The position numbers and the translations under genes are program-made. Below the pieces are notes generated by a model. It saw only the letters and a list, made by a program, of their open reading frames with translations, had not been told where the DNA came from and did no database searches. Below are positions 40,200-49,927 of a DNA stretch of 64,000 nt, piece after piece (the first letter of the stretch is position 1; every line of letters begins with the position of its first letter). Location: positions 21,370-85,369 of the forward strand of contig PLNS01000013.1 in assembly GCA_003141855.1 (NCBI GenBank). Reading direction: 5' to 3'. This stretch comes from Candidatus Bathyarchaeota archaeon. Its GTDB lineage: Archaea; Thermoproteota; Bathyarchaeia; Bathyarchaeales; Bathycorpusculaceae.

Positions 40200-41051
40200 C
40201 TACTTACTCAATGAAGTGGTCTTTCGATGTCTAAGTATCACAACAACAGATAATATCCCAACTATCAAAGGGATAACTACCAACAATGAAAACTCTGGAA
40301 CGGCAGGAGTAGGAGTTGATGTGCCTAAAGGATTTGAACCCATCAATGGAATTGCTACTGGCTTCATTAATGGATGATTATCCTGACAATAGATTGTTTG
40401 CGTGTAATTCTGCACAGTAGCATAAACATATGGTTGGTTGCCTATTCCTGAGTTATCAATTTCTGCAGCATTTGGGTACTTCGTTAAATAGTCACTCCAA
40501 TAGTTTCGGTCAGCAATTCCGCCAAAGCTTAACCATACTAAAATGTTACCTGTGAGGTTATTTTCAGTTATTGTGGCGTTTCCTCCGTAATCAAATGATA
40601 TTGCTGCAACGGAGCAGAAAGTTATGTTATTGTTAATACAGTCTCCTAGAAACTGGATGGAGGGTATGTAGTCATTGTAGAAAGTGTCATTTCCACCGCC
40701 ATTAGTGCCTATGCCGCCACTTTCAATATACAAGTTCTCGATTGTTACATTGTTAATAGTAGGATGTGTTGGGTTTTGCCCTATTCCGTTTGTTAGGTCT
40801 ATTCCACCTTGGTTAAGCGAATACCCTGCGCCGTCTATTACTATACTGCTTCTCTGAACTTGCATGTTGCCTGAAATGTTTGCTTTTAAAGCGTAAGTAT
40901 TGCCGACTTGCTGGATGCTATTTGTTCCTGCAACCGAGCCATCTGCATTAATTATTATGTTGCCAACCGTTTGTCCCTTGATAAGAGGAACACTAACCAC
41001 TAATGACGTTAGGAATATAAGAGAAACAACAAAGGCTAAACGTTTCTTCAT
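40200..41051 (-). CDS. NosD-like beta-helix surface protein with PEF-CTERM sorting signal
   Basis: Paralog of 3136; C-terminus PTPAVPEF-TM-RHRK. Confidence 0.8.
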   Translation of the reverse strand: MKKRLAFVVSLIFLTSLVVSVPLIKGQTVGNIIINADGSVAGTNSIQQVGNTYALKANISGNMQVQRSSIVIDGAGYSLNQGGIDLTNGIGQNPTHPTINNVTIENLYIESGGIGTNGGGNDTFYNDYIPSIQFLGDCINNNITFCSVAAISFDYGGNATITENNLTGNILVWLSFGGIADRNYWSDYLTKYPNAAEIDNSGIGNQPYVYATVQNYTQTIYCQDNHPLMKPVAIPLMGSNPLGTSTPTPAVPEFSLLVVIPLIVGILSVVVILRHRKTTSLSK

Positions 41052-41276
41052 ACCTTCCATCTCTCCAATAAATCCGTTAAGTGACATAATAAAAGTGTTT
41101 TCGTCAAAGTTTCTTGACTGATAGCTGAATAATAAGAGAAGGAATGTAATGGAAACATATGTAGTTCTTTAATTGACTGCACATAGGAATAAATTTTAAA
41201 GCATTTTTCATTAAGAAGAATATGCCATTTGCCCTCTCTGTACGTTTTACTTACGTTCTCGATTTTTAGTACTGTC

Positions 41277-42587
41277 TCATTCATATCGCATTGCCTCTGC
41301 TGGTCGGGTTCTGGCTGCTCTCCATGCGGGGTACAGGCTGCCCAGTGCACCTAACAGTACGGCGACACCTAACCCTAGTAGTACAAGCTCGGGGGTTATG
41401 GCTACGGAGATAGATGCCGACGAAGCAGCCCCGATGGATACACCTGTTTGGGTTACGGTGCTATTACCTGCCTGAGTTGGCGCGGGAAGCAGCAGGTTAG
41501 CAAACGAGGTTGCCCCGATGGTGCCTATTGCTATGCCGCCTATGCCTGCGATTAAACTTAACAGTACCCCTTCAAGCATGAATTGCCCCAGAATTGCTGC
41601 GCTGCTGGCACCCAACGCCTTCAGGGTTCCTATTTCGCGGGTTCTCTCACGCACCGTATAGAGCATGATGAATAGCACGATGGCGGCGTCCACTGCGGTG
41701 ACAACCGCAATCTCCAATGTACCTGTGCTTTGAATTTCACTCATCGTCGCCTGCGCCAGCTCCAGTTGCACGTTGGTTTGGGTTTGCATCTGTATAATCG
41801 AGTACACCAGCGATGCAGCTATCGAAACGGTGAGTTTAGGGTACATGATGCTGATTTTGGTGGCGACTTCGTCTACGTTGTGGACGTCGTCGACGAAAAC
41901 CTTAAAGTTGGTTACGTTTCCAGCGTTGTCTGTTATGGTTTGGGCTTGGTTGAGGTTCATGTAGGCGGCGGTTTTGTTAAGCGGACTGTACCCGTCTATG
42001 CCGACGACTTGGAAGGTTTGGTTTAAAATCTTCACTGTATCGCCCACCTGTACGCCGAAGTTGTCTGCGACCCGTTGCTGCAGCACCACTACGCCACTGT
42101 CGCCGACTTGGAGGTTGCGTCCCTCTGTGATGTTGGAGGGCAAAAGCAGCGAGTACATGTCTATCAGAGAGGCGTCATCGAGCGGTATGCCGTAGATGTT
42201 ATAGTCTAAGTTGCTGTCGTTTGCGGCTTGGTCAAGGATAGGTATAACGCCCCTAACATGTGGAATCGACGTTATGTTCGAGTAGTCTGTGTTGTTCATA
42301 AGCGGCTGCACCTGGATGGTTTCAGCCTTTGAGTCCGGATTGGGAACCGAGATGGCTGGAAGATGGCATTCTATTTGGGTTGCCACTATGCTCATTGTGG
42401 CGTTGACGGCTTGCGCGTTAGCTGTTAGGGCATCAATCGTTTTCTGTGTGGTGGCTTGGCTTTGTGTGATGCTTGGCGGAAGCGAAATTAACATCGCCAG
42501 GGCAAAACTCAACACCACAATCACCAAAAGCGACCGGGTTTTTCTTCTCGATATGTTTCTGGTTGCTCGACTTAATATCCCCATCAT
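41277..42587 (-). CDS. MacB/FtsX-family ABC permease
   Basis: N-terminal TM, large extracellular domain, ERTREIGTLKALGA, YPAWRAARTRPAEAMRYE. Confidence 0.9.
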   Translation of the reverse strand: MMGILSRATRNISRRKTRSLLVIVVLSFALAMLISLPPSITQSQATTQKTIDALTANAQAVNATMSIVATQIECHLPAISVPNPDSKAETIQVQPLMNNTDYSNITSIPHVRGVIPILDQAANDSNLDYNIYGIPLDDASLIDMYSLLLPSNITEGRNLQVGDSGVVVLQQRVADNFGVQVGDTVKILNQTFQVVGIDGYSPLNKTAAYMNLNQAQTITDNAGNVTNFKVFVDDVHNVDEVATKISIMYPKLTVSIAASLVYSIIQMQTQTNVQLELAQATMSEIQSTGTLEIAVVTAVDAAIVLFIMLYTVRERTREIGTLKALGASSAAILGQFMLEGVLLSLIAGIGGIAIGTIGATSFANLLLPAPTQAGNSTVTQTGVSIGAASSASISVAITPELVLLGLGVAVLLGALGSLYPAWRAARTRPAEAMRYE

Positions 42588-42601
42588 TTTTTACCTTCAG
42601 A

Positions 42602-43891
42602 TTAAATAAACAAAGAAGGCTGTTCTTTTGCCCGATTAGCCAGTCGGGTTGGTTGTGGCGCTTGTTTTTCTTTGTCGCTTAAGCTTGGCGTTGGCTTTGA
42701 GCTCGTCGGGTTAGATTTGGCTTTTTTCTTTTTCTTTACAACGATGACCACGGCGAGGACTGCTATGATTGCAACAAGCACAGCAATTATCAGCAACTGA
42801 ACGGGCGGTATCAAATCTGGAGTATAAATTGTCGATGTGTAGGGCACTATGTTTATCACTGAAACGGTGCCGAGTCCTCCATTGGTGATGTAGGCATATT
42901 CGCCGTCGGATGTTATGGCCATGGCATAAGGTGTGCTTCCAAGAGGCGTCTGTATGGTTGAGGTGACCTTGTTGGCAACGGTGCTTATCACTGAAATTGA
43001 GCTGTTAATTAGATTTGAGGGCTTAAAAATTTCGTCAGTGCCGAGATTTGTGACTAAGGCGTATGTGCTGTTGGGCATTATAGCTATACCGCGGGGAGAG
43101 GTTCCAACATTAACCGTCGCAGTCACACTGTTTGATGCTGTATTTATCATCGAGACAAACCCGTCTTGTGCTTCGGGGTTCTCGTTTTTAGATAGGCTTA
43201 TGACATAGACGTATGCGCCGTTGGGTGCTATAGCTAAACTGTGAGGGTAACCGTCAACAGATATTTTTGTTTTCACAGTGTTGGTTGCTGTGTCTATGAC
43301 TGAAACGGCGCCTTTGCTATCCATAGTTTCATAGTTGAAATCGTTCTCGGAGACGTAGGCATATTTCCCGTTTGGAGTTATGGCTATGCCTTCAGGGCTG
43401 CCATCAAGGGGTATTGTCGTCGTCACCTGATTGGTGGCTGTGTTTATCACCGACACCGATGAGTTGCCGATGCTTGCAACATAGGCGTATTCGCCATTAG
43501 GCGTTATTGCCACATCGTTAGAGGTGCTTCCAACAGGTACCGTCGCCGTCACTGTGTTTGTAGCCGTACTTATCACTGAAACCATGTTGCTGCCCTGATT
43601 GACAACATATGCATATTGACCGTTGGGTGCTATTGCCACGCAAACAGGCGAACTTAAACCGGTTACCGTCGCCGTTACCTTGTTTGAAGTTATGTTTATG
43701 ACTGAGACTGAGTTGCCTGCGGAATTTGCAACATAAGCGTATTGGCCATTGGGCGTTATAGCTACACTGCAGGGGGTGCTTCCAACCGGTATCTGTGCGG
43801 TATCGGTGGCTCCGACCAGTGAAGGCAAAGAGGCCAAAACGCAAAGAAAAAGAAGAGCGCAGGCGGCCCAAGTTTTTGTTCTTTGCTTCAT
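42602..43891 (-). CDS. YVTN-repeat beta-propeller surface protein
   Basis: About 7 repeats of VAITPNGQYAYV.N..SN.VSVI; C-terminal TM. Confidence 0.9.
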   Translation of the reverse strand: MKQRTKTWAACALLFLCVLASLPSLVGATDTAQIPVGSTPCSVAITPNGQYAYVANSAGNSVSVINITSNKVTATVTGLSSPVCVAIAPNGQYAYVVNQGSNMVSVISTATNTVTATVPVGSTSNDVAITPNGEYAYVASIGNSSVSVINTATNQVTTTIPLDGSPEGIAITPNGKYAYVSENDFNYETMDSKGAVSVIDTATNTVKTKISVDGYPHSLAIAPNGAYVYVISLSKNENPEAQDGFVSMINTASNSVTATVNVGTSPRGIAIMPNSTYALVTNLGTDEIFKPSNLINSSISVISTVANKVTSTIQTPLGSTPYAMAITSDGEYAYITNGGLGTVSVINIVPYTSTIYTPDLIPPVQLLIIAVLVAIIAVLAVVIVVKKKKKAKSNPTSSKPTPSLSDKEKQAPQPTRLANRAKEQPSLFI

Positions 43892-44631
43892 TCTTCCTGC
43901 GTCTCCTCTGCTTTTGATTGATTGCCCGAAAGGGTTGATTTTTGGGTTTGTTTGTCTTTGAGGATTTTTCCGTTGTTTAGAGTCAGCATCCGTTGAGTCT
44001 GCGCTGCAACTTGCTCGTCATGTGTCACCATGATGATGGTGGTGCCCTGTTTTTGGTTGAGGTCTAATAGCAGCTTTACGATTTCCTGTTTGTTGTTGAC
44101 ATCGAGGTTTCCGGTGGGTTCATCCGCTAAGATTATGGCTGGGTCGTTGGCTAAGGCGCGGGCGATTGCGACTCTTTGCTGTTCTCCTTGGCTTAACCGT
44201 TGAGGCCGGTGCTGTTCTCGTCCTGAGAGGCCGACTGTGTTGAGGAGGTCTTTGGCTCTTTGTTTGCGTTGTCCCTTGAATTTGCCTGCAAGCTCCATGG
44301 CTAACTCGACGTTTTCGCGGGCGTTAAGGTAGGGTAGCAGGTTGAAGTTTTGGAAGATGAAGCCTATTTTGTCTCTGCGTATCTTGTAGAGCTGTGATTC
44401 GGGTAGGTGCGCGATGTCTACGTTGTCTATGAGTACGCTGCCGCTTGTTGCTTTGTCGATGCATCCGATGATGTTTAGCAGGGTGGTTTTGCCGCTGCCT
44501 GATGGTCCCATGATGGCGGTGAATTCGCCTTTTTTTACTTCAAGGTTGAGGTTGGTTAGGGGTTGGACGTCTCGTTTGCCGAGTTTGTAGGTTTTAGTTA
44601 GGTTTTCGATTTTTAGTACTGAATCATTCAT
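43888..44631 (-). CDS. ABC ATP-binding protein (MacB/LolD type)
   Basis: GPSGSGKTT, LSQGEQQRVAIARAL, ILADEPTGNLD, THD. Confidence 0.95.
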   Translation of the reverse strand: MNDSVLKIENLTKTYKLGKRDVQPLTNLNLEVKKGEFTAIMGPSGSGKTTLLNIIGCIDKATSGSVLIDNVDIAHLPESQLYKIRRDKIGFIFQNFNLLPYLNARENVELAMELAGKFKGQRKQRAKDLLNTVGLSGREQHRPQRLSQGEQQRVAIARALANDPAIILADEPTGNLDVNNKQEIVKLLLDLNQKQGTTIIMVTHDEQVAAQTQRMLTLNNGKILKDKQTQKSTLSGNQSKAEETQEE

Positions 44632-45976
44632 ATCTCATGGCCTCCGCGGGGCGTGTTCTTGCAGCTTTAAGGGCAGGATACAGGCTTCCAAGTGCACCCA
44701 ACAGTATGGCAGCGCCTAATCCGAGCAGCATAATTTCGGGAGTTACAGAGGCAGCGATAAAGTTGGTTTCGTGGCCTGGGATAACGGGTGTTTTCCCAAA
44801 GGACACCATTCCCGGTTGCAGAACGACGGTTCCGTTTGGATCCCATCCTATACCGACTCCGGTTTGCACCGGCATTGGCAACAGCACGCTGGCTAGTGTT
44901 GGTAGGACAAAGACGCCGACTGCTATGGCAATTACAGCAGCTATCACGCTTAGCAGCACGCCTTCAAGCATAAATTGCCCCAGAATCTTTGCGTTGCTGG
45001 CGCCCATCGCTTTGAGGGTGCCAATTTCTTTGGTTCTTTCTCGGACACTGTAGAGCATAATGAACAGAATTATTGCGGTGTCTGCGATGACGGCGATGCT
45101 TATTTCGATTAGACCAGTGCCTTGAATTTGGTTAAGGTTGTTTTGTGCTGCTTGGGTTAGTACGTTGATTTGGCTCTCCAACGGTTGGGCTGTGTTTAGC
45201 TGGGATAGGCCTGCTGAAACCTCCAGTTTAGGGTCTAGGCTGCGGATTCGTGATACGACGGTGTTGACGTTATCGATGTTGTCAGCAAATACTTTGTATG
45301 CCCATGCTTGCCCAGTACTGTTTGTGATGGCTTGAGCGTCTGCTAAACTCATGGTGACGCCATTCGCACCGCGTGGTAGCTCCAGACCCTCGATGCCTAC
45401 AACCGTAAAGTTTCGTCCCAAAATGGTGACGGTGTCGCCTAAGCTTGCACTCAAATTCTCTGCTGCGTGCTCGTCGAGGATAACAACGCCGCTATCGCCA
45501 ACCTGCAGGTTTCGTCCTTGGGTGATGTTTTGCGGTAGAATTGTTGGGTCCATCTGGAAAGAAGCGTTCTCTAGGGGTACGCCGTAGATTTGATACGACC
45601 TGTTGGCTGTGGATAATTCAAGAAATAGGGGTATGACGTTGGTTACGTCTGGGAGTGAGGTGATGTTGTTGAATAGTGATTCGTTCATTAGTGGCTGGGT
45701 AAGCCAGATGGTTCCATGACCTATCATTGTGTTGGGGTCAAAGGATATTGTATAGTCGCATTGTATTTCGGTTGCTGACAAAGTTACGGTTGTTTTAAGG
45801 AAGTCGGCATTAGCGATTAGGCTATTGATTGCTTTTTGGGTGAGTGCTTGTCTTGCGTTGATGCTTGGCGGCAGGATAATTAACATTGTTAAGGCAAGGC
45901 TTAATGCGATAATTACAACTAAGGCTCTAGTTTTTCTTCTTGATAGATTTCTGGTTGCTCTTGTTAGTATTCCCAT
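44624..45976 (-). CDS. MacB/FtsX-family ABC permease (second subunit)
   Basis: Paralog of 41277; same motifs. Confidence 0.9.
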   Translation of the reverse strand: MGILTRATRNLSRRKTRALVVIIALSLALTMLIILPPSINARQALTQKAINSLIANADFLKTTVTLSATEIQCDYTISFDPNTMIGHGTIWLTQPLMNESLFNNITSLPDVTNVIPLFLELSTANRSYQIYGVPLENASFQMDPTILPQNITQGRNLQVGDSGVVILDEHAAENLSASLGDTVTILGRNFTVVGIEGLELPRGANGVTMSLADAQAITNSTGQAWAYKVFADNIDNVNTVVSRIRSLDPKLEVSAGLSQLNTAQPLESQINVLTQAAQNNLNQIQGTGLIEISIAVIADTAIILFIMLYSVRERTKEIGTLKAMGASNAKILGQFMLEGVLLSVIAAVIAIAVGVFVLPTLASVLLPMPVQTGVGIGWDPNGTVVLQPGMVSFGKTPVIPGHETNFIAASVTPEIMLLGLGAAILLGALGSLYPALKAARTRPAEAMRYE

Positions 45977-45998
45977 TTTTTTGTCTCCCGATTATACC

Positions 45999-46139
45999 TA
46001 CTATCCTGTATGGTAGAGCTTATAACACTTACCATTATCTATGGTAGGTGAATGGCAAGCGCCCAACAGCGAAATAGTTTTTTGTTTGACGTATCGCCTG
46101 ATTTTGGAAAAATTTAAAAGCCTACCATCCCCTATGGTA
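45999..46139. promoter_or_regulatory. Three TACCAT-N5-ATGGTA operators in the divergent promoter
   Basis: 45999-46015 (TACTAT), 46030-46046 and 46123-46139; TATA-like TTATAA at 46020 and TTTAAA at 46113. Confidence 0.8.
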
Positions 46140-46153
46140 CTTGAGGAAAAACA

Positions 46154-46612
46154 ACGACAGAAGAGAAAAAAACAGCCGTCTCTCAATATAATGTTCAAGG
46201 AAAACAACTAGAAGCCTTCCTAGGACCACTAGAAGCAAGCATACTTCAAACGATATGGTGCTCAAAGAAAAGACCCATCACAGTAAGAGAAGTACTGGAC
46301 GAACTCAGAAAGAAAAAACCCGTCGCCTACACCACCATCATGAATACAATGGATAGGCTATACGAGAAGGGTCTGCTTGACCGAAAAATCGAAAAAAGCA
46401 AAGGCGGTGCCTATCTCTACTATGTTTACTGGCCAAAGCTTGAAGAGGCAAACTTCAAGGAAGCTGCGGTTCGCCAGGTACTCGGCAGCCTTATAGACAA
46501 CTTCGACGAACTCGTCACCAACTGTCTAGTTGAGAAAGCTGCATTGGATGATAAACAGTTAGAGGCACTTAAAGAGAAAATCGATAAGACCCTAAAGGAA
46601 AAGAAGAAATGA
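46154..46612 (+). CDS. BlaI/MecI/CopY-family repressor; ACG at the expected start
   Basis: LGPLEASILQTIW...ITVREV...VAYTTIMNTMDRLYEKGLL; the frame is open from 46145 with no ATG/GTG/TTG before 46340. Confidence 0.8.
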   Translation, partial: TTEEKKTAVSQYNVQGKQLEAFLGPLEASILQTIWCSKKRPITVREVLDELRKKKPVAYTTIMNTMDRLYEKGLLDRKIEKSKGGAYLYYVYWPKLEEANFKEAAVRQVLGSLIDNFDELVTNCLVEKAALDDKQLEALKEKIDKTLKEKKK

Positions 46613-46619
46613 CCAAGTT

Positions 46620-48053
46620 ATGGTAGGCTTAAACGATTTCCTGTTTCAAATCTTGCAGCCATACTTCTTTTATTCAGTAGTGTTTCTCTCCATAGCCTTT
46701 GTCTCCGTCAAGATTTTTTTGAAGTTTAATCCCCTTATCTCACGGCGAGTTCAAAGTATCCTATGGCTTATACCGCTTCTTGTCCCAGTCACCGTATTGT
46801 TGCTTTTTCATCCCCAAACAGTAATAAGCGCCATGTCTTTTGCGTCTCAGATTTCAGTTCCAGCTGGCATGGGCGTTGCTTCGGCGGGCCCCAGCTTTTT
46901 GTCGTTCACAGGGTTACTGTGCATCGGCGGAGCAGTTGCAGCTGTAGTTTACTTTGGATTCATGGTGTTTTTTGGGCGGAGGATCGCGCTTAAGCGGTTC
47001 CATGTTGTTATGATGGCTCAAGACGAGTATACACCGCTACAGGAGAAAGTCAAGGAAACCGCACATAAACTGGGCATTTCCGAGCCCAAAGTCGGCTTAG
47101 TCGATGACCTGTTACCCAATGCCTTCACAGTCGGCTATGGGCAAAATACAGTAGTAGTTTTCTCTTTGGGTCTTCTAAACATGCTTGCCCTTGACGAGTT
47201 GACCGCTGTTGCATCCCATGAATTGGCTCATGTCAAAGCAAAAGATTACTTATTCAAAACCACTTCATACACCCTAAACATTCTTTCTTTCTTTAACCCG
47301 CTCTCATATTTGGCAGCTTCTCAGTCTCAAAAGGAGCGTGAGTTGCTTGCTGACCAGAAAGGTGCTGCTTTACTTGACAAACCTGCGTTGATGGCAAAGG
47401 TACTTACAAAGGTTCAAGCGATGGTACAAGAGTTTCCCAAGCCAAATCTTGCAGATAGGCTTTCCTCCAGCTTGTTTCTTGTATTCCCTCTTGCTCATAG
47501 ACCGGGAATACTTGCCTCTCACCCGCAAATAGCCCAAAGAGTACAAAACATACATGCCGTTGCTTCTGCGCCCTCTAAAAAACGCCGATATGTGATTGCT
47601 ACCGCCTTGCTGTTAGGCATTCTTGTTTGTGCAACAATAGCGGTGGGGTATTCAACTATACAGGCTCAAAATGCATTTAGTCAAAAAGCAAACGCCGCTT
47701 TAGTCAATGGACAAAGTTTCTATCTTTATAATGAATCGTATCCTTTCGACCCTAGTAGCCCAACAGGCATCTTTTTTGCCAACGAATCGAGCCTGCAGCT
47801 TTTTCTATCATCTTTACCGCAAGGCAGTTCTTATGTGGGTTGTTATGTAGATGGCAATGGAATAACTCACACGTATACATCATCGATACCAAATATTGTT
47901 GTAGTCAGTGGGCAAAGTGTCTTAGTTAATGGGCAAAGTTCCTTTTTTGGCAACATGACATATCCTTTTGATCCTGCTCACCCAACGGGTAACTTTGTCA
48001 TCAATCAAGGGAGCTTGCAAAATTCTCAGCAAGACGACTGGCTTTACAGATAG
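46620..48053 (+). CDS. BlaR1-like membrane zinc metallopeptidase (M56/M48) with C-terminal extracellular domain
   Basis: TM segments, PNAFT.G, HELAH, ELLAD, SHP; duplicated YPFDP..PTG motif. Confidence 0.85.
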   Translation: MVGLNDFLFQILQPYFFYSVVFLSIAFVSVKIFLKFNPLISRRVQSILWLIPLLVPVTVLLLFHPQTVISAMSFASQISVPAGMGVASAGPSFLSFTGLLCIGGAVAAVVYFGFMVFFGRRIALKRFHVVMMAQDEYTPLQEKVKETAHKLGISEPKVGLVDDLLPNAFTVGYGQNTVVVFSLGLLNMLALDELTAVASHELAHVKAKDYLFKTTSYTLNILSFFNPLSYLAASQSQKERELLADQKGAALLDKPALMAKVLTKVQAMVQEFPKPNLADRLSSSLFLVFPLAHRPGILASHPQIAQRVQNIHAVASAPSKKRRYVIATALLLGILVCATIAVGYSTIQAQNAFSQKANAALVNGQSFYLYNESYPFDPSSPTGIFFANESSLQLFLSSLPQGSSYVGCYVDGNGITHTYTSSIPNIVVVSGQSVLVNGQSSFFGNMTYPFDPAHPTGNFVINQGSLQNSQQDDWLYR

Positions 48054-48428
48054 TAGTACAATAACTAACACTTTTCCAAGCGCGGCAAATGTTACTTTAT
48101 CTCTAAAGATGGCGCAAACGCCACTATATTTTGGGCTAATCAGTCTCAAACGTCAGGATAAAAGGCAATTATAAGGCTGATTTTTTTGTTAATGATTATT
48201 CCAGTGGCGACGTATATAGTCAGCCATCGCCGTGCCAACTAAAGAGCGCTTGCATTGACCCTGACTTCTAATTTTGCTCTCTAATCTGAACGTTAAGAAC
48301 TCATTTGTTTTACCCAAATCACTTTTTCCTTTTCGAAGCTTTTTGCAGAAATCCTATGGGATGAGTAAACTACATAACGATCTAAGTGACATATGACATA
48401 CGTTTAACATTTGACGGATGGCTATGGA

Positions 48429-49927
48429 ATGAAGCGAACGGTAATATTTGCCACTATCGCGGTTCTCTTAATAATAGTCGTGTCAGCAACCCTCGTTATA
48501 GTTAACAATATGCCAGCAAAGAATGACCCATTCTATGTTGGCGTAACCTATGGCGGAGACACAACCGCTGATGCCAAGCTCCTTATTGACAAAGTTAAGA
48601 ACTACACAAACCTTTTCGTTTTACAGTCAGGAACCTTGCAACGGAATAATACGGCCATGGATGAAATAGGAGATTACGCTATTGCTTCAGGACTGCACTT
48701 TGCAGTTTACTCTGGCGTTGATGAGGCATTTCAATCAACTGATTGGATAAACACCGCTCAACAACGATGGGGAAGCCAATTTCTAGGCATATACTACAAC
48801 GACGAGCCAGGAGGAAAAATGCTTGACGGTTACGTGAATCTCGTCCCATCGATAAGCAATGCCACAGTTGGAAACAGTACCACAACTATAGGGAGCGCAG
48901 GCGTACTGAAGATGGGTGGCGGTGGAATTCAAGTTGGAGATACAACGTATTATCCGAATGGCACCATCCGAGTCTACAAATCAACTGGCATGCCTCCGAA
49001 CCCTTCTTCGTGGACTAGTTCATCGGACACACCTAAGGTTGTTGACGGCACAAACACCGGTATCTCTTACTATCCTAATGGCTCGATTACCATAAATGAG
49101 AGTGCAAACTCAATAACCTATTATCCTGATGGATCAATGACTGAGCAGTTGAAAGGAAAAGACTTTTTTACGATGGAAAACGGTTCAGACCGTATATCTC
49201 AAGTGGAACCTTACAGCTCCGTTTTAGCCAAAAGCCCAATCAAGAACTGTGATGAAGCCGCGCAAAATTTTGTTAACCGAAATCGCTCATCTTTAAGCTG
49301 GCTAGATAATCAGTCAGTTACCCTTTTTACCGCCGATTATGCGCTTTATTGGTGGGATTATCAAAGCGGCTATGACGTTGTCCTTGCTGAGTTGGGCTGG
49401 AACAACACGGATGCTCAAGAAATTGGTCTGGTGAGAGGAGCGGCGAACCTGCAGGACAAGAGTTGGGGCACAATCATAACTTGGACGTATACTCAACCGC
49501 CCTATTTGACAGCGGAGACGAAATGTATAATGAAATGCGCTTGTCATATGAGTCCGGTGCCAAGTACGTTGTAGTCTTCAATTACGCTGGAGACATGAAT
49601 GGTCCGTATGGGACGTTGCAGGATGAACATTTCCAAGCTCTTGAACGCTTCTGGAACGAAGTGGTACAAAACAAGAGCGTGGTGCATGGTGGAATTAAGG
49701 CTGAGGCAGCGTTGGTTTTGCCCAGGAATTATGGGTGGGGCATGCGAAATCCGGATGATACGATTTGGGGTTTGTGGAGCACAAACAGCACCTCGCAGCA
49801 AATCTGGACACAACTTCAAAGTAAGCTTGCGCAATACGGCTCAAAACTAGACATAGTTTATGATGACCCAGCGTACTCTGTCGCTGGAAAATACAGCCAC
49901 ATATATTACTGGAACCAAATAAGTTAA
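48429..49927 (+). pseudogene. GH-like barrel paralog 4, frameshifted at ~49510
   Basis: PPYLT then out of frame; adding one base restores SGDEMY. Confidence 0.8.

Follow-up and report, generated by a model that had tools for sequence, protein, structure and literature searches.

The locus described here lies within a 64-kb stretch of archaeal DNA (hereafter called the window) that derives from a 2.39-Mb assembly that is 96% complete. Public records for close relatives of the source organism carry the names Candidatus Bathyarchaeota/Bathyarchaeia, Bathy-6 and Candidatus Bathycorpusculum. Two operons oriented in opposite directions meet at this locus. One encodes an ATP-binding cassette (ABC) transporter of the MacB type together with a YVTN beta-propeller protein, and the other encodes a repressor of the BlaI family followed by a membrane zinc peptidase. 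Based on these genes and on three palindromic operators located between the operons, we consider that the locus probably operates as a proteolytic switch of the BlaI/BlaR (BlaIR) kind that works in one step and is autoregulated, and that would control both the repressor-peptidase operon and the transporter operon. The six genes are arranged as follows.

41277-42587, minus strand: MacB-type permease B, an accessory component (PF02687, 67 bits; PF12704, 48 bits)
42602-43891, minus strand: YVTN beta-propeller protein, an accessory component (TIGR02276 repeat, 186 bits)
43888-44631, minus strand: ABC ATPase of the MacB/LolD type (PF00005, 126 bits), overlapping permease A by 8 nucleotides (nt)
44624-45976, minus strand: MacB-type permease A, the first gene of its operon (FtsX domain PF02687, 58 bits; MacB periplasmic core PF12704, 42 bits)
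46154-46612, plus strand: BlaI-family repressor (PF03965), 152 codons, with ACG as its probable start codon at 46154-46156
46620-48053, plus strand: BlaR1-like membrane zinc peptidase, 477 amino acids (PF01435, 79 bits; PF05569, 61 bits)

A preliminary description of this DNA, made from the letters alone, had proposed divergent permease-ATPase-YVTN-permease and repressor-peptidase operons, and gene and domain searches bear this arrangement out. The four minus-strand genes lie close together, since two successive neighbours overlap by 8 and 4 nt and the last gap is of 14 nt, and the peptidase gene begins 7 nt past the end of the repressor gene. The same description correctly recognized the repressor open reading frame as BlaI-like, but overlooked that this frame lacks a canonical start codon, a matter to which we return below.

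The repressor matches PF03965 with a score of 72.3 bits (cut-off 22.6) over profile positions 1-114 of 115, and the matching domain extends from position 46220 onward. When solved structures are searched with phmmer, repressor residues 26-145 align with residues 11-122 of MecI, and residues 17-144 align with residues 4-121 of BlaI. The protein therefore includes a C-terminal dimerisation domain homologous to that of BlaI/MecI. A different relative of this family would be a CopY-type metal-responsive repressor, which is freed by metal binding rather than by proteolysis. This assignment is scarcely credible for the archaeal protein. The match to the CopY/TcrY model TIGR02698 is weak, at 33.5 bits against a much higher cut-off of 122 bits. 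The repressor sequence lacks the CxC..CxC metal motif that CopY-type proteins have at their C-terminus and ends instead in a lysine-rich helix, and Pfam and NCBIfam searches found no metal-handling genes in the locus. Given the missing cysteine motif, CopY-type metal sensing was rejected.

The intergenic region between the two operons contains a compact set of predicted control elements, and the operators, being palindromic, are given without a strand.

45999-46015: operator O1, between the ABC operon TATA box and the predicted transcription start of that operon
46020-46025, minus strand: TTATAA, putative TATA box of the ABC operon as read from the sequence, 4 nt from each of the two flanking operators
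46030-46046: operator O2, upstream of the ABC operon TATA box
46108-46119, plus strand: B recognition element (BRE)/TATA-like element (AAAA.. TTTAAAA) presumed to serve the repressor-peptidase operon
46123-46139: operator O3, the putative autoregulatory site, which starts 3 nt past the TATA box
46143-46146, plus strand: GAGG, a Shine-Dalgarno-like motif 7 nt upstream of the ACG codon

The operators share the palindrome TACCAT-N5-ATGGTA, to which O2 and O3 conform exactly and O1 with one mismatch. That three such palindromes lie at the two TATA boxes, as had been reported, is well beyond chance, because only 0.07 matches are expected from shuffled sequences. In the entire 2.39-Mb genome, the broader family consensus TACYAT-N5-ATRGTA has exactly three occurrences, each within the 141 base pairs (bp) from 45999 to 46139, whereas control motifs gave 0 matches; the motif scan thus found no further operators elsewhere in this genome. 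The centres of O1 and O2 are 31 bp apart, with the TTATAA box between them.

These sites are also maintained during evolution. The preliminary description had itself named failure of the palindrome to be conserved as a result that would count against it. Of 37 distinct loci that represent the order, 33 have a site of the O3 form at a fixed distance from the BRE/TATA element, and a GAAA-NN-TTAAA-NN-GC block is its fixed-distance neighbour in all 33. Eight positions of O3 are invariant across these loci, including the outer TAC and GTA triplets, and the 5-nt spacer is free to vary. Position 4 and its mirror position mostly co-vary, with C/G in 9 loci, T/A in 20 and mixed pairs in 4. In a second family of the phylum, the loci have a variant of the palindrome, TTACTAC-N5-GTAGTAA. 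Repressor residue 64 (46343-46345) is Asn (..MNTMDRL) mostly where the operators have TACCAT arms, and is Ser (..MSTMDRL) only where they have TACTAT arms. This residue and operator position 4 may form a specificity pair, with the caveat that the association is confounded by common ancestry.

The locations of the operators suggest how they might act. Transcription starts, as estimated from TATA spacing alone, are predicted to lie near positions 45997 and 46142. On this estimate, O1 and O3 would be situated between the TATA box and the start of their respective transcripts, and O2 would be situated just upstream of the ABC operon TATA box. Repressor sites at such positions are the usual means by which archaea prevent access of TBP/TFB or of the polymerase. 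Given these positions, occupied sites should block both promoters, and the palindromic sites in the promoters of the repressor gene and of its presumed target match what is expected of a BlaI-family repressor. Although the positions are read directly from the DNA, binding of the operators by the repressor is deduced from them.

Comparisons with other archaeal genomes reveal an obligatory pairing. Each of the 57 distinct archaeal loci surveyed has the peptidase gene directly behind the repressor gene. The pair itself is patchily distributed: sampling found it in 27 of 301 genomes from the order and in 28 of 401 from across the phylum, the latter including 16 of the 17 genomes of one other family. 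Within the clade to which the window belongs, a divergent homologue of permease A is found in 12 of the 14 loci that could be assessed. Every one of the 12 clade loci with a divergent permease and ATPase also has the O1-TTATAA-O2 module, and neither of the 2 loci without these genes does. The co-conservation of repressor, peptidase and ABC genes that the preliminary description anticipated is therefore observed, both in the adjacency of the pair and in the association of O1 and O2 with the transporter.

The transporter is of the MacB/LolCDE type (type VII), as judged by its permeases, which have four helices, an FtsX domain and a MacB core, and by its ATPase. The ATPase scores 239 bits against the N-terminal part of the NCBIfam MacB model and 234 bits against LolD, both of which are under the equivalog cut-offs, and its identity to the ATPases of related loci is 62-95%. 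The other members of the operon are less consistent companions. The propeller gene is present in the operons of three relatives (G016, G008 and L069) and resides downstream of the peptidase gene in a fourth (L074), whereas a second permease in the operon is found only in G016. Thus, the genes for a two-permease transporter with a propeller are all present in the window as first described, but the conserved regulated core comprises one permease and the ATPase, and the propeller and permease B are lineage-specific accessories. The translated propeller starts with a signal sequence and closes with a hydrophobic helix and then a run of lysines, as is expected of a surface protein anchored in the membrane.

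Other clades place the pair beside different genes. In a second clade, the pair is located directly downstream of a gene for an HtrA-like protease with Trypsin_2 and PDZ domains (L027:9655-10638, minus strand; likewise L020, L021 and L026). An ATG in this clade comes immediately past the operator, which suggests that the transcript is leaderless. In the other family, the pair faces a gene for a large surface protein with CarboxypepD_reg, NEW3 and immunoglobulin (Ig)-like domains (L084:2012-3421 and L090:2032-3426), and the two TATA boxes share a single operator. Judged by these neighbours, cell-envelope genes are the common theme among relatives.

Several representatives deviate from the simple two-gene form. 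Genome G016 carries six repressor-peptidase pairs (contigs C4 and C5; L017-L021), one of which has a tandem second repressor gene. The tails of the six peptidases differ while the operator half-sites are nearly identical (TACYAT), which raises the question of how the paralogues avoid cross-talk. In G007 (L023/L081), only the last 33 repressor codons precede an intact peptidase gene, and in L077 (OY969706.1) the repressor gene breaks into two frames near codon 53; both cases are either decayed copies or errors of assembly. Finally, a 1.6-kb contig binned as 'uncultured Actinomycetes bacterium' (L073; CAZUDL010000075.1) carries this archaeal pair, with identities of 85% and 77% and an ACG start. 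This contig is almost certainly mis-binned.

The peptidase is the presumed sensor of the switch. Its principal features, including the HELAH motif and the duplicated tail motif at the places where they had first been noticed, are listed below.

47217-47231, plus strand: HELAH motif of the protease domain (residues 200-204)
47616-47684, plus strand: fourth helix
47685-48050, plus strand: tail, predicted to be extracellular
47697-47798, plus strand: tail repeat 1 (LVNGQS..N-E-S-YPFDPxxPTG..SLQ)
47919-48020, plus strand: tail repeat 2

Among 40 homologues, residues H200, E201, H204 and E241 are invariant, as is expected of zinc ligands and catalytic residues. Residues 1-330 are well conserved in these proteins and are followed by a hydrophobic helix (residues 333-355), beyond which the length and sequence of the hypervariable tail differ from one paralogous group to the next. 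The Pfam M56 profile (PF05569) matches residues 45-251 over profile positions 33-250 with 60.8 bits against a cut-off of 31 (59.1 bits in another search). The NCBIfam model blaR1_generic matches residues 121-368 over profile positions 125-356, which covers the protease part only, with 45.6 bits against a cut-off of 400. An AlphaFold2 model with a predicted local distance difference test (pLDDT) value of 71 contains helices at residues 14-36, 51-62 and 96-126, then the protease domain and finally a long helix that spans residues 322-362. When this model was compared with known structures using Foldseek, the matches were ZMPSTE24/Ste24 and BlaR1 of Staphylococcus aureus (8EXS, 8EXQ and 8EXP), of which BlaR1 gave the top query template-modelling (TM) scores, 0.37-0.38. 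Positively charged residues border the helices on their cytoplasmic side, and the tail contains N-x-S/T sequons. Together, the charge distribution and the glycosylation sequons point to the topology of BlaR1 with the tail outside the cell, where it probably carries N-linked glycans.

An alternative view is that the peptidase is an HtpX-like protease of membrane quality control and shares no more than a transcript with the repressor, and that the repressor answers to some other signal (such as a small ligand or a redox change) without being cleaved by its neighbour. Several observations that favour this view, and others besides, weigh against a BlaI/BlaR-type switch. The M48 profile (PF01435) exceeds M56 in score (78.9 versus 60.8 bits), and the best NCBIfam HtpX score (94 bits) is higher than that for BlaR1, although it too is far from its cut-off (341). 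A phmmer search of solved structures with the peptidase matched only an HtpX fragment. Most of the tail is modelled with pLDDT values below 50, including residues 408-477 of the full-length AlphaFold2 model. The repressor residues that align with the MecI cleavage site are not conserved: the scissile bond of BlaI/MecI is an Asn-Phe bond, N101-F102, and the corresponding residues are N123-C124, where position 123 varies (N, T or S). Seven residues before N123-C124, an N116-F117 dipeptide is invariant in all 37 repressor homologues. The dependence of both transcription-start estimates on TATA spacing counts among these adverse points as well.

The sequence search of structures returned HtpX alone, and the link to BlaR1 is drawn from profiles and from fold. 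Public records, too, label these archaeal peptidases M48 or HtpX. Even so, a co-transcribed HtpX seems unlikely to be the correct explanation. The two genes are neighbours in every one of the 57 loci, and separate, ordinary HtpX-type genes are found elsewhere in the same genome. The protein falls short of the HtpX cut-off and differs from that class by its fourth helix and 122-residue tail; the extra N-terminal helix pair, the fourth helix and the variable outside tail together follow the plan of BlaR1. Moreover, the homologue alignment of the repressor reveals no ligand-binding or cysteine motif through which another signal might act.

No match to the penicillin-binding (transpeptidase) sensor domain PF00905 is found in the peptidase. 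Its tail is composed in part of an internal repeat, such that residues 360-393 and 434-467 have 20 of 34 residues in common (E = 3e-13), and the PFDPxxPTG motif within the repeat is unique to the peptidase tail genome-wide. When the tail was modelled separately with 20 orthologues, the mean pLDDT was 51 and no confident fold was obtained, and no ligand can be proposed. One conceivable arrangement is that the switch senses the transporter itself, such that the tail or the outer loop of the peptidase contacts the extracellular domain of a permease or the propeller and reports transport in the manner of BceAB to BceS. Rapid divergence is indeed common to the tail and to those products of the operon that face outward, as can be seen between the window and G016, where the propeller is 45%, permease A 58% and the ATPase 90% identical. 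In addition, the propeller gene is linked to the pair even without ABC genes in L074, and the tail offers no recognizable ligand-binding fold. However, many pairs of the order have no ABC transporter nearby and are instead accompanied by genes for an HtrA-like protease or an Ig-like surface protein, and we regard direct sensing of the transporter as distinctly improbable.

The most unusual feature of the locus is the beginning of the repressor gene. Its reading frame opens at 46145 after a TGA codon, and no ATG, GTG or TTG is encountered until position 46340, which is inside the recognition helix of the DNA-binding domain. Gene callers shorten the repressor to 90 residues, and the DNA-binding domain would be largely missing from a product of this length. 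In relatives whose gene opens with ATG, TTG or GTG, the protein begins with the sequence M-x-x-[ED]-K-K..SQYN, and in the clade that includes the window an ACG codon holds exactly the position of the start codon. This ACG is invariant in the window and the 14 other loci of the clade (15 of 15). A Shine-Dalgarno-like GAGG or GGAG is located 7-8 nt upstream of the ACG, and loci with ATG or TTG have equal spacing. In two species, a TAA codon directly precedes the ACG. Furthermore, ACG accounts for just 13% of the remaining Thr codons in the repressor genes of this clade, and the ACG at the start never varies although neighbouring codons do. Given these patterns, we judge it quite likely that translation of the repressor begins at ACG.

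Other explanations for the missing start codon can be envisioned, namely that the gene is dead, that an assembly error is present, that ribosomes initiate at an ATG in O3 and slip by -1 at a run of A residues, or that C-to-U editing converts ACG to AUG. An ATG at 46134, in the right arm of O3, does begin a frame of 25 codons, which runs through a stretch of seven A residues (A7, 46166-46172), stops at a TAG (46209-46211) and overlaps the frame of the repressor. Plant organelles provide a precedent for the editing of ACG to AUG. As a group, these explanations are nevertheless quite improbable. A dead gene is excluded by purifying selection, because codons 2-62, which lie upstream of the first canonical start, have a median ratio of nonsynonymous to synonymous substitution rates (dN/dS) of 0.10 at a dS of 1.2. 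An assembly error was rejected on the grounds that the identical ACG appears in 15 independent assemblies. Frameshifting by -1 was rejected as a general mechanism because the A-run is missing from four ACG loci, and because in three loci the frame differs, with an in-frame upstream ATG whose frame is closed by a TAA just before the ACG. The ATG in O3 is also probably upstream of the transcript start, as judged by TATA spacing. Of the four explanations, only editing retains some probability.

Maximum-likelihood analysis groups the ACG loci in a single clade (support 95/81), within which the codon at this position has changed to TTG once. The single origin of the ACG tempers the argument for its use as a start codon, since the 15 loci do not represent independent events. 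Three loci that are counted outside the ACG clade (L047, L048 and L050) have an ATG or TTG start with ACG as the second codon. A coarse scan of long frames that lack an early canonical start, conducted with strict criteria, found no second example of a Shine-Dalgarno motif with an ACG start in the genome, and no report of ACG as an archaeal start codon was found in the literature searched. The cofE gene of this genome (L098:1441-2226, G000 contig C1) has a GTG start preceded by a GAGG motif. The ACG start most likely keeps synthesis of the repressor low, along with that of the closely following peptidase.

A mechanism can be proposed from these components, in which the binding, cleavage and activation steps are taken from knowledge of the protein family, with PetP-PetR and the BlaR1 literature serving as precedents. 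A dimeric winged-helix repressor would bind the three 17-bp palindromes, namely O3, which separates the TATA box of the repressor's own two-gene operon from the predicted transcription start, and O1 and O2, which lie on either side of the ABC operon TATA box. Sites occupied in this manner are expected to keep TBP/TFB or RNA polymerase off both promoters. An extracellular cue acting on the hypervariable outside tail or on the outer loop of the peptidase would then activate its cytoplasmic HELAH zinc-protease domain, which in turn would cut the repressor in its C-terminal dimerisation region and derepress both operons. The cell would subsequently make more of the sensor and repressor, as well as the exporter and, in this lineage, the surface propeller and the second permease. 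The earlier proposal of a BlaI/BlaR-like switch over the ABC operon is thus strengthened by the conserved operators, the invariable pairing and the association of O1 and O2 with the ABC genes, while proteolysis of the repressor is predicted from family membership. As to its physiological role, the data justify only the suggestion that the system is envelope-related and inducible.

A more ambitious possibility combines two of the ideas considered above. The ACG might be the selected start of an autorepressor that throttles both repressor and protease to set the sensitivity of the switch, and the tail might read the cell's own exporter or propeller rather than a free ligand. We consider this speculative and rather improbable. 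If true, it would provide the first regulatory near-cognate start codon in archaea, as well as an instance of Bce-like transport sensing that operates via a protease and not a kinase.

The genes that flank the system (40200-41087, minus strand, 295 amino acids; 48411-49574, plus strand, 387 amino acids) have no Pfam or NCBIfam match. Neither adjoins the pair in any relative examined, and for this reason both are probably not members of the system.

The locus is of interest for both of its unusual aspects. It places the logic of BlaI/BlaR regulation on archaeal promoters with TATA and BRE elements, and a regulon consisting of two divergent operons and three boxes is compact enough to make a good test bed. 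It also presents a clean case of an ACG start, offering a handle on near-cognate initiation in archaea as well as exposing an annotation problem.

Repressors and membrane proteases of the BlaI/BlaR kind are familiar from Staphylococcus, where they sense penicillin. The archaeal locus resembles the BlaI-BlaR1 and MecI-MecR1 systems of S. aureus and Bacillus licheniformis in that a PF03965 repressor gene is followed by a gene for a membrane HExxH zinc peptidase. It further resembles them in the order of three helices, cytoplasmic protease, fourth helix and outside C-terminal part (a topology that is predicted here), in the palindromic operators of the divergent promoter region, and in its presumed autoregulation. 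However, BlaR1 has a penicillin-binding sensor where the archaeal peptidase has a 122-residue tail with an internal repeat, and the bacterial targets are beta-lactamase or penicillin-binding protein 2a (PBP2a) rather than an exporter. The archaeal locus also differs by its TATA/BRE promoters, its ACG start and the non-conserved residues at the aligned scissile position. BlaI and MecI recognize a TACA/TGTA dyad, whereas the operator in this system has the form TAC-N11-GTA.

A functional parallel is provided by the antimicrobial-peptide modules of the BceRS-BceAB type in Firmicutes, in which BceAB reports to BceS and the sensing apparatus is a histidine kinase with a response regulator. In both systems, an FtsX-family ABC transporter whose extracellular domain is large answers to an envelope sensor that is dedicated to it and encoded alongside, and would be induced on demand, as we propose for the archaeal locus. 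They differ in that a kinase serves in place of the protease and repressor, and in that BceB has ten helices whereas the MacB/LolC-type permeases have four. Likewise, near-cognate start codons are known from other genes, such as the AUU of Escherichia coli infC and the ACG of adeno-associated virus (AAV) VP2 and of some plant and viral mRNAs. These examples and the archaeal gene have in common a weak initiation codon in a good ribosome-binding context, with the level of product kept low or tuned, but in the present case the ACG belongs to an autoregulated archaeal repressor.

Switches of the BlaI/BlaR type are now viewed as a large and mostly unexplored class of bacterial envelope sensors. Among approximately 15,000 M56 proteins, the commonest architecture has an undefined C-terminal region, approximately 96% are encoded within five genes of a BlaI-like gene, and only approximately 6% carry a transpeptidase domain (Kurtz et al. 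2026, PMC13492132). These figures establish that the kind of system described here is known and common in bacteria. CenIR of Clostridioides difficile controls cell-envelope genes, namely those for a peptidoglycan hydrolase and an exported protein (Kurtz et al. 2026, PMC13492132). In Synechocystis, PetP-dependent degradation of PetR has been shown in extracts, and PetRP answers to copper, with plastocyanin and cytochrome c6 as its targets (Garcia-Canas et al., bioRxiv 10.1101/2020.07.31.226407). As in the archaeal pair, these systems join a repressor to an M56/M48-like protease whose short C-terminal region has no identifiable domain. They differ in being bacterial and in having other targets, and PetRP is responsive to copper, whereas nothing in the archaeal locus points to a metal. 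Archaea are not mentioned in the papers on CenIR (PMC13492132) and PetRP (10.1101/2020.07.31.226407), and our literature searches found no paper on archaeal BlaI/BlaR systems. The locus in the window is thus an archaeal member of the BlaI/BlaR kind with a well-defined regulon, and nothing about it is more unusual than its ACG start.

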